From the NCBI RefSeq assembly GCF_056712565.1, contig NZ_JBWXXM010000002.1: DNA of 64,000 nt, one strand, 5' to 3'. This document shows positions 31,196 to 32,738 of this stretch, piece after piece; within the stretch, counting starts at the first letter, position 1; each line of letters opens with the position of its first letter. Both the position numbers and the translations under genes were made by a program. Below the pieces are notes generated by a model. The model saw only the letters and a program-made list of their open reading frames with translations. It did not search any database and had not been told where the DNA came from. Origin of the DNA: a plasmid.

Positions 31196-31942
31196 ATGAA
31201 CATGAATAAATTATTCGCTGCCGTAGTACTGAGTGCAACATTAATGTCCTCTGCTTTTGCCGCCGATCATTATCAGCAAATTCGCAATGCAACCGGCAGA
31301 ATAGAAATTGCGGGTAAAACATTTCTTATCGATCCAATGCTGGGTAAAAAAGATGCTTATCCCGGTTTTGAGAATACACACAACAGCCAGCTGCGATTCC
31401 CTCTCGTTGAACTGCCGGTAAGCATTGAGGATACCTATAAGGGTGTGGAAGGGATCATTGTCACCCATACGCACCTTGACCACTGGGATCCGGAAGCCCA
31501 GAAAAAGTTGCCTAAAGATATTCTCATCATCGCCCAGCATGAAGATGATGCAAAATTAATCCGGAGTCAGGGTTTTAAAAACGTCAAAGTCCTGAATGGT
31601 ACAATGCAGTTCGGCGATGTTACGGTGGTTAAAACGCACGGTGCTCACGGTACTGACGAAATGTTTGCCTCGTCACTCAGCGAGATCCTCGGCGAAGCCA
31701 TGGGCGTCGTTTTCACGGCAAAAGGTCATAAAACCGTCTATGTTGCCGGCGATACCCTGTGGAATGCCGACGTGAACAAGGCAATCGTGAAATACAAACC
31801 GGATGTGTTAGTGCTGAATACCGGTGATGCCCGCAACCTGAATTTCCCTGACGCAGGCATTATTATGGGCACAAAAGATGTCCGTCACGCCTATGAGATG
31901 TTGCCGCAGGCAAAAATCATTACGGTGCATATGGATGCTGTA
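31196..31942 (+). pseudogene. MBL-fold metallo-hydrolase paralog with signal peptide, C-terminally truncated by IS1
   Basis: THTHLDHWD motif; paralog of 28398-29177; reading frame runs into the IS1 left IR at 31943. Confidence 0.65.
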
Positions 31943-31997
31943 GGTGATGCTGCCAACTTACTGATTTAGTGTATGATGGTGTTTTTGAGGTGCTCCA

Positions 31998-32273
31998 GTG
32001 GCTTCTGTTTCTATCAGCTGTCCCTCCTGTTCAGCTACTGACGGGGTGGTGCGTAACGGCAAAAGCACCGCCGGACATCAGCGCTATCTCTGCTCTCACT
32101 GCCGTAAAACATGGCAACTGCAGTTCACTTACACCGCTTCTCAACCCGGTACGCACCAGAAAATCATTGATATGGCCATGAATGGCGTTGGATGCCGGGC
32201 AACCGCCCGCATTATGGGCGTTGGCCTCAACACGATTTTCCGCCATTTAAAAAACTCAGGCCGCAGTCGGTAA
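31998..32273 (+). CDS. insA: IS1 InsA
   Basis: ORF 91 aa [22 protein letters not shown]... Confidence 0.9.
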
Positions 32274-32695
32274 CCTCGCGCATACAGCCGGGCAGTGACG
32301 TCATCGTCTGCGCGGAAATGGACGAACAGTGGGGATACGTCGGGGCTAAATCGCGCCAGCGCTGGCTGTTTTACGCGTATGACAGGCTCCGGAAGACGGT
32401 TGTTGCGCACGTATTCGGTGAACGCACTATGGCGACGCTGGGGCGTCTTATGAGCCTGCTGTCACCCTTTGACGTGGTGATATGGATGACGGATGGCTGG
32501 CCGCTGTATGAATCCCGCCTGAAGGGAAAGCTGCACGTAATCAGCAAGCGATATACGCAGCGAATTGAGCGGCATAACCTGAATCTGAGGCAGCACCTGG
32601 CACGGCTGGGACGGAAGTCGCTGTCGTTCTCAAAATCGGTGGAGCTGCATGACAAAGTCATCGGGCATTATCTGAACATAAAACACTATCAATAA
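32192..32695 (+). CDS. insB: IS1 InsB reading frame (expressed as InsAB' by frameshift)
   Basis: ORF 167 aa overlapping insA 3' end. Confidence 0.85.
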
Positions 32696-32738
32696 GTTGG
32701 AGTCATTACCGGAGAATTGTATCATTAACAGTCTAGTT

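Follow-up and report, generated by a model that had tools for sequence, protein, structure and literature searches.

The window, a plasmid stretch of 64,000 nucleotides, carries a single complete copy of IS1, whose left end (IRL) abuts the interrupted 3' part of an MBL-fold hydrolase gene and whose right end (IRR) faces a DUF6884 protein gene (Table 1). Judged from its sequence, the window is IncHI2 plasmid backbone; positions 27000-36000 match IncHI2 plasmids from E. coli and Salmonella with 100% identity, among them pF1140-1 (NZ_OY754378.1), the closest record, and the 64-kb window also holds the ter operon, hipBA, tet(A) and IncHI-type transfer genes. The span 31196-32719 given for the locus in the initial annotation is exact, running from the start of the hydrolase ORF to the end of IS1 plus 9 bp.

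Table 1. Features at the IS1 locus and at related junctions. Positions are those of the window unless another record is named; junction offsets are in bp from the window junction (0), the ancestral state being +2469.
Feature	Position	Strand	Remark
Retained part of 5.26-kb four-gene cassette	27028-31942		last 341 bp gone with the deletion
GlxA-type regulator	27293-28273	-	cassette gene; Pfam
SaxA paralog, cytoplasmic	28398-29177	-	6BRM match over full length, E=1e-156
MFS transporter	29415-30596	-	cassette gene; Pfam
Truncated SaxA-family MBL-fold hydrolase gene	31196-31969	+	249 native codons, 8 from IS1 and a stop
Putative Sec signal peptide MNMNKLFAAVVLSATLMSSAFA	31196-31261	+	predicted cleavage after AFA (between MNMNKLFAAVVLSATLMSSAFA and AD); judged by eye
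Left flanking 9-mer GATGCTGTA	31934-31942		deletion breakpoint inside hydrolase gene
Complete IS1 (IS1B-like)	31943-32710	+	768 bp; IRL faces hydrolase gene
insA	31998-32273		within IS1
insB' frame	32192-32695		within IS1
A6C frameshift motif TTAAAAAAC	32247		within IS1
Right flanking 9-mer GGAGAATTG	32711-32719		surviving right copy of original 9-bp TSD
DUF6884 protein gene	32739-33404	-	unchanged IncHI2 backbone neighbour, IRR side of IS1
hns	L004 6237-6641		deleted in window
IS1 left-end junction, L007	+65 bp		still within hydrolase gene; right flank CCCCGGACGAG, beside merR
IS1 left-end junction, L001	+129 bp		just beyond hydrolase stop codon; right flank GGAGAATTG
IS1 left-end junction, L006	+219 bp		right flank CCCCGGACGAG, beside merR
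IS1 left-end junction, L008	+571 bp		right flank CCCCGGACGAG, beside merR
IS1 left-end junction, L002	+1141 bp		within hns; right flank GGAGAATTG

Members of the IS1 family are about 768 bp long, have imperfect terminal inverted repeats of about 23 bp, combine insA and insB' by a -1 frameshift at A6C and generate a 9-bp target duplication (TSD). The element in the window has the length, the inverted repeats and the insA/insB' frames with the A6C motif of the family, and it lacks the 9-bp TSD. Its first bases are GGTGATGCTGCCAAC and its last bases GGAGTCATTACC; the terminal inverted repeats are imperfect, the left end (GGTGATGCTGCCAACTTACTGAT...) and the reverse complement of the right end (GGTAATGACTCCAACTTATTGAT; ...CAATAAGTTGGAGTCATTACC as read along the window) agreeing at 18 of the first 23 positions. 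Identical plasmid DNA carries the annotation "IS1B family transposase" at this position, and the identical IS1 gene in the related locus L012 gives Pfam matches to Zn_ribbon_InsA, HTH_Tnp_IS1 and DDE_Tnp_IS1. The element shows 0 mismatches to the IS1 of loci L001-L006, and no second IS1 exists in the 64-kb window, just as the whole of pF1140-1 has one copy only.

The gene on the left had been labeled an MBL-hydrolase paralog. The MBL fold stands, and the label can be sharpened: by matches to solved structures, the clipped gene is a SaxA-family isothiocyanate-hydrolase paralog, the activity being predicted from the family. Sister plasmids encode an intact protein of 283 residues, which aligns with SaxA (PDB 6BRM; E=2e-73 over 27-281, 47% identity) and with PDB 3RPC (E=1e-84 over 23-283); it contains the Pfam domain Lactamase_B_2 at residues 43-246 (E=1.5e-10), which is kept in the remnant, and the HxHxDH metal motif, HTHLDH, at residues 91-96. 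The clipped protein is 48% identical to the cytoplasmic paralog encoded in the same cassette. Its N-terminus is about 23 residues longer than those of cytoplasmic homologs in the alignment, and neither the cytoplasmic paralog nor the solved homologs (6BRM and 3RPC) have the putative signal-peptide stretch; in the AlphaFold model, residues 1-19 have pLDDT <50. The likeness to SaxA thus lies in the end-to-end alignment of the intact form and in the HTHLDH motif, whereas SaxA has no N-terminal signal peptide and the gene in the window has a putative one but is without the conserved last 34 residues. SaxA clusters hydrolyze isothiocyanates to an amine and COS, and the occurrence of SaxA genes on mobile elements of Enterobacterales has been reported before (PMC7036374).

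The initial annotation had the C-terminus of this paralog cut at the left end of IS1, and the comparison with the intact gene confirms it, placing the break after codon 249 of 283. The first 249 codons are common to the window ORF and the intact gene; the ORF then enters IS1 and stops, and thus 34 native residues are lost, the final eight codons (GDAANLLI) and the stop codon being IS1 left-end sequence. The lost C-terminus includes nine invariant columns of a four-sequence alignment (N250, H251, R256, R260, I268, P275, D277, G278 and E279), and in the AlphaFold model of the intact hydrolase, which is of medium quality (mean pLDDT 71), it has a pLDDT of about 90 and forms a helix at 256-265 and terminal strands, with block values of 72-94. 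On this four-sequence conservation and medium-quality model, the remnant has probably lost its proper fold or its activity. The RefSeq protein WP_077252922.1, a 257-aa "MBL fold metallo-hydrolase" shown as an ordinary gene, is this IS1-fused, 3'-truncated remnant, and its annotation should be corrected from gene to pseudogene.

As the initial annotation had proposed, we aligned the locus to a chromosomal GlxA-MBL-MFS-MBL counterpart. Over 5,258 aligned bp, the 5.26-kb cassette shares 99.4% identity with a segment of a chromosomal island in E. coli MB06021, and the secreted paralog is complete there; with occurrences on plasmids and in a chromosomal island, we take the four-gene cassette to be mobile. 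By its 6BRM-level match, the cassette corresponds to a sax-type isothiocyanate-detoxification module. No paper connecting isothiocyanate hydrolases with IncHI2 plasmids turned up in a full-text search, and a study of IncHI2 in Salmonella (PMC5043248) is silent on the IS1/hydrolase locus. Directly to the left of the cassette, within ~24850-26929, lies a serine recombinase/resolvase gene (26288-26929, + strand) with Tn3-family transposase fragments beside it, and the equivalent loci L011 and L012 show DDE_Tnp_Tn3 and DUF4158; the cassette may have been brought in as cargo of a Tn3-family transposon.

The flanks of IS1 do not match each other. The two 9-mers, GATGCTGTA on the left and GGAGAATTG on the right, are unlike, in agreement with the initial annotation, and the 20-bp flanks have no 5-mer in common. 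Realignment with repeat lengths of 2-15 bp, including other offsets, found no direct repeat adjoining IS1, and the reported absence of a TSD therefore holds. The right flank is invariant across L001-L005, and the IS1 right end followed by GGAGAATTGTATCATT... is the same in the window and in L001-L004.

The history of this locus becomes visible in plasmid pCFSAN061772_02 (L004). There, the four-gene cassette with the intact 283-aa hydrolase is followed by hns (134 aa), two small ORFs of 78 and 151 aa between the hydrolase and IS1, the IS1 itself and the backbone, and the IS1 has GGAGAATTG on either side, a perfect 9-bp TSD that would match by chance with a probability of ~4e-6. In L005 (NZ_CP073623.1), too, GGAGAATTG borders the IS1 position to the left and to the right, and the IS1-free site is found as a contiguous 400-bp match in 549 PLSDB records. 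Since the TSD is present around the same IS1 in L004 and L005, its absence in the window is secondary. The window equals L004 minus L004 positions 5444-7912, a single block of 2,469 bp that includes the left TSD copy and whose last base lies directly before IRL, so that the new junction is at base 1 of IS1. Outside this block, the two sequences differ by 0 mismatches over 4,943 bp on the left and by 2 over 4,058 bp of IS1 and right flank. Together with the left TSD copy, the window has lost the two small ORFs, hns, a terminator-like hairpin and the last 34 hydrolase codons.

The initial annotation had read the differing flanks as the result of deletion or recombination rather than of simple insertion, and L004, with the same IS1 inside its TSD, bears this out, as the window lacks 2,469 bp abutting IRL. 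The further claim that the sequence to the right of IS1 is not the original neighbor holds in one respect: the two flanks were once noncontiguous. In the other it fails, because L004 carries the TSD at this IS1, which makes the right flank with its GGAGAATTG copy the original neighbor of IS1 and the left junction the secondary one. The right flank is ordinary IncHI2 backbone that was formerly 2.47 kb farther from the MBL gene, and no foreign DNA has been introduced.

The same comparison disposes of two trivial readings. If IS1 had simply inserted into the hydrolase gene and its TSD had decayed or never formed, the right flank should continue the hydrolase sequence. It consists instead of backbone, which the progenitor has at a distance of 2,469 bp, and the flanks have no common 5-mer. 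Some IS copies are generally without recognizable TSDs, and nothing else speaks in favor of a simple insertion; the remaining region is 99.9-100% identical to sister plasmids, and the decay of six of nine TSD bases is therefore not credible. We rule out simple insertion with a decayed TSD by the TSD of L004 and the 2,469-bp comparison, and regard it as vanishingly improbable. An assembly artefact, in which a repeat-collapsed IS1 joins nonadjacent regions, deserves consideration because IS1 commonly causes misjoins and many draft contigs with the hydrolase gene end inside IS1. Against this, the same junction with the same right flank recurs in independent complete or long assemblies (pF1140-1, L011 and the window), and pF1140-1 has one IS1 and hence no second copy to collapse. 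This recurrence and the single IS1 of pF1140-1 rule the artefact out, leaving it next to no probability.

We consider it probable that the 2,469 bp were removed in one step by the IS1 transposase, as an IS1 adjacent deletion, a reading that draws on the arrangement of the flanks. In the first event, IS1 would have inserted between a small lipoprotein-like ORF and the DUF6884 gene, duplicating 9 bp; that an insertion duplicated GGAGAATTG is established by the two copies in L004. In a variant of this event, an IS1-bounded resistance region would have inserted and later collapsed to one IS1. Transposase would then have joined the left end of IS1 to GATGCTGTA, 2,469 bp leftward on the same molecule, by intramolecular replicative transposition in the deletion orientation, with GATGCTGTA presumably serving as the target site. 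The intervening DNA and a second IS1 copy would have been excised as a nonreplicating circle and then lost, and the retained product would keep IS1 together with the flank and the TSD copy on its right. The deletion is plain from the alignment, while its mechanism we infer, since RecA-dependent recombination of two direct IS1 copies yields the same product.

Such recombination would imply a two-step history, in which the hydrolase gene first received, at GATGCTGTA, another IS1 of like orientation that made its own TSD, and recombination between the two copies then deleted 2,469 bp and one copy. This would leave the product that we observe, an IS1 without a TSD whose left and right flanks derive from different copies, and recombination between IS copies is a recognized source of absent TSDs (PMC11708052). 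The IS1 copies in these plasmids are identical in sequence and hence do not discriminate between the routes. In the contig L013, this junction is present but chromosomal DNA adjoins IS1 on the right, for which IS1-IS1 recombination or an assembly join is the simplest explanation. The two-step route predicts, however, a reciprocal junction, with the IRR of IS1 followed by GATGCTGTA and AACCACACAACC. When we searched PLSDB with a synthetic junction consisting of the IS1 right end, GATGCTGTA and the downstream hydrolase sequence, no record gave a contiguous match, and two-piece joins were found to plasmids of the +129 type only. Moreover, pF1140-1 has a single IS1, and the two-step route would demand for each of six junctions a same-orientation local insertion and recombination of its own. 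We consider this route possible but clearly the less probable of the two, and continue with the transposase-mediated adjacent deletion as the preferred reading.

The six junctions consist of that in the window and five other IS1 left-end junctions in IncHI2 plasmids, each exactly at the IS1 terminus (Table 1). Their right flank is constant within each of two classes, being either the GGAGAATTG backbone or CCCCGGACGAG beside mer; in ps12177-CTX and similar plasmids, a 26-kb mer/IS26 multiresistance region follows IS1. The locus shows one IS1 end fixed together with its flank, a single missing block abutting the other end, and nested end points, as expected of adjacent deletions. Taken at sequence level, the at least six independent IRL-anchored end points and the ancestral state are a series of nested IS1 adjacent deletions. 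That every junction lies at the left end of IS1 may reflect the anchoring of the query, or selection. The backbone stretch next to the mer/multiresistance (MDR) site is a hotspot of repeated IS1 remodeling.

L005 adds a further arrangement, with two identical IS1 in direct tandem at 12413-13956, separated by the 8-bp spacer CCCCGGAC and followed by GGAGAATTG. The spacer equals the first 8 bp of the mer-side IS1 flank in L006-L008, and the tandem would most simply be another left-end deletion, starting from the second IS1, a near-complete removal of the IS1-bounded mer/MDR region. Given this tandem, the lone IS1 within its TSD in L004 may likewise be what remained of a composite after collapse, and the deletion in the window possibly exceeded 2,469 bp. 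The immediate progenitor of the window was either of the L004 type or an MDR-bearing composite, and 2,469 bp is for that reason the minimum size of the deletion. The span pattern of the tandem IS1 recurs in several other PLSDB matches (H16-H18, H23, H24 and H28).

Mechanism, element and gene family are all already known, and the case in the window leaves existing knowledge of how IS1 works unaltered. Reif and Saedler are said to have described, in 1975, adjacent deletions caused by IS1 in the classical gal-region system. These resemble the present series in having a constant end and flank on one side, a fusion exactly at the terminus on the other, no TSD and nested end points; they differ in being experimental, whereas here natural plasmid variants are compared. 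Intramolecular replicative transposition has also reportedly been found to reorganize resistance plasmids in a study of IS26. That system is alike in having deletion or inversion beside an IS already present in an MDR plasmid of clinical or veterinary origin, recognized by the loss of the TSD, and differs in belonging to the IS6 family with an 8-bp target duplication, IS1 forming its own family with a 9-bp one. Adjacent deletion and recombination between IS copies have been reviewed as standard reasons for missing TSDs (PMC11708052). A time-resolved counterpart comes from IS150, a member of the IS3 family, in the E. coli long-term evolution experiment, where insertion with a TSD was followed by a TSD-less adjacent deletion that was sometimes extended, a multistep history that the plasmid series resembles, while the order of the IS1 events here is deduced from extant variants (PMC11708052).

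The gene content of the deleted block bears on its possible consequences. A tblastn search of the whole of pF1140-1 found no other H-NS homolog, and the Hha/YmoA gene is kept on this plasmid. Loss of hns in the window-type lineage could change plasmid silencing and fitness cost, and hns was lost or truncated independently in the L001 and L002 lineages too. It is conceivable, but in our judgment quite unlikely, that the repeated left-end deletions reflect selection, in some hosts, against the H-NS "stealth" protein or the isothiocyanate cassette. If that were true, the widespread window-type lineage would be an adaptive variant.

Public assemblies contain the identical 257-aa fusion protein in 217 indexed blocks, and many of the contigs concerned end inside IS1. 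Its presence in so many blocks indicates that the junction is real, inherited and common in one IncHI2 sublineage. Among PLSDB and the complete E. coli genomes searched, the exact junction is contiguous only in pF1140-1, from which the window differs in carrying two additional IS insertions and in its resistance region. The junction between GATGCTGTA and IS1 is a marker of an IncHI2 sublineage and useful for plasmid typing. The 834-kb contig L013 (GCA_038377975.1) carries the junction of truncated hydrolase and IS1, with IS1 at 6748-7515, and its right flank is E. coli chromosome with DUF1889, RidA-like, helicase, TsaD-family, Slp and AMP-binding genes. The contig reflects either the integration of an IncHI2 plasmid into the chromosome via IS1 or a false assembly join at IS1.

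The window contains further mobile elements. An IS66-family element of 2.5 kb at ~14024-16555 has three ORFs, including one of 537 aa that is TnpC-like, and ends GTAAGCG...CGCTTAC; it is flanked by an 8-9 bp duplication, AAATGTTC, and pF1140-1 is without the element at that site. An IS21-family element of 2.13 kb at 36767-38895, with an IstB-like ORF at 36827-37627 (- strand) and a 4-6 bp duplication, CATGTA, sits just downstream of a DUF1173 gene, and is likewise without a counterpart in pF1140-1. The resistance region with tet(A), TnAs1 and IS26 at 47299-64000 has an arrangement unlike that of pF1140-1, and ~820-bp matches of IS26 size, duplicated and inverted, lie at 53138-53960 and 56392-57211.
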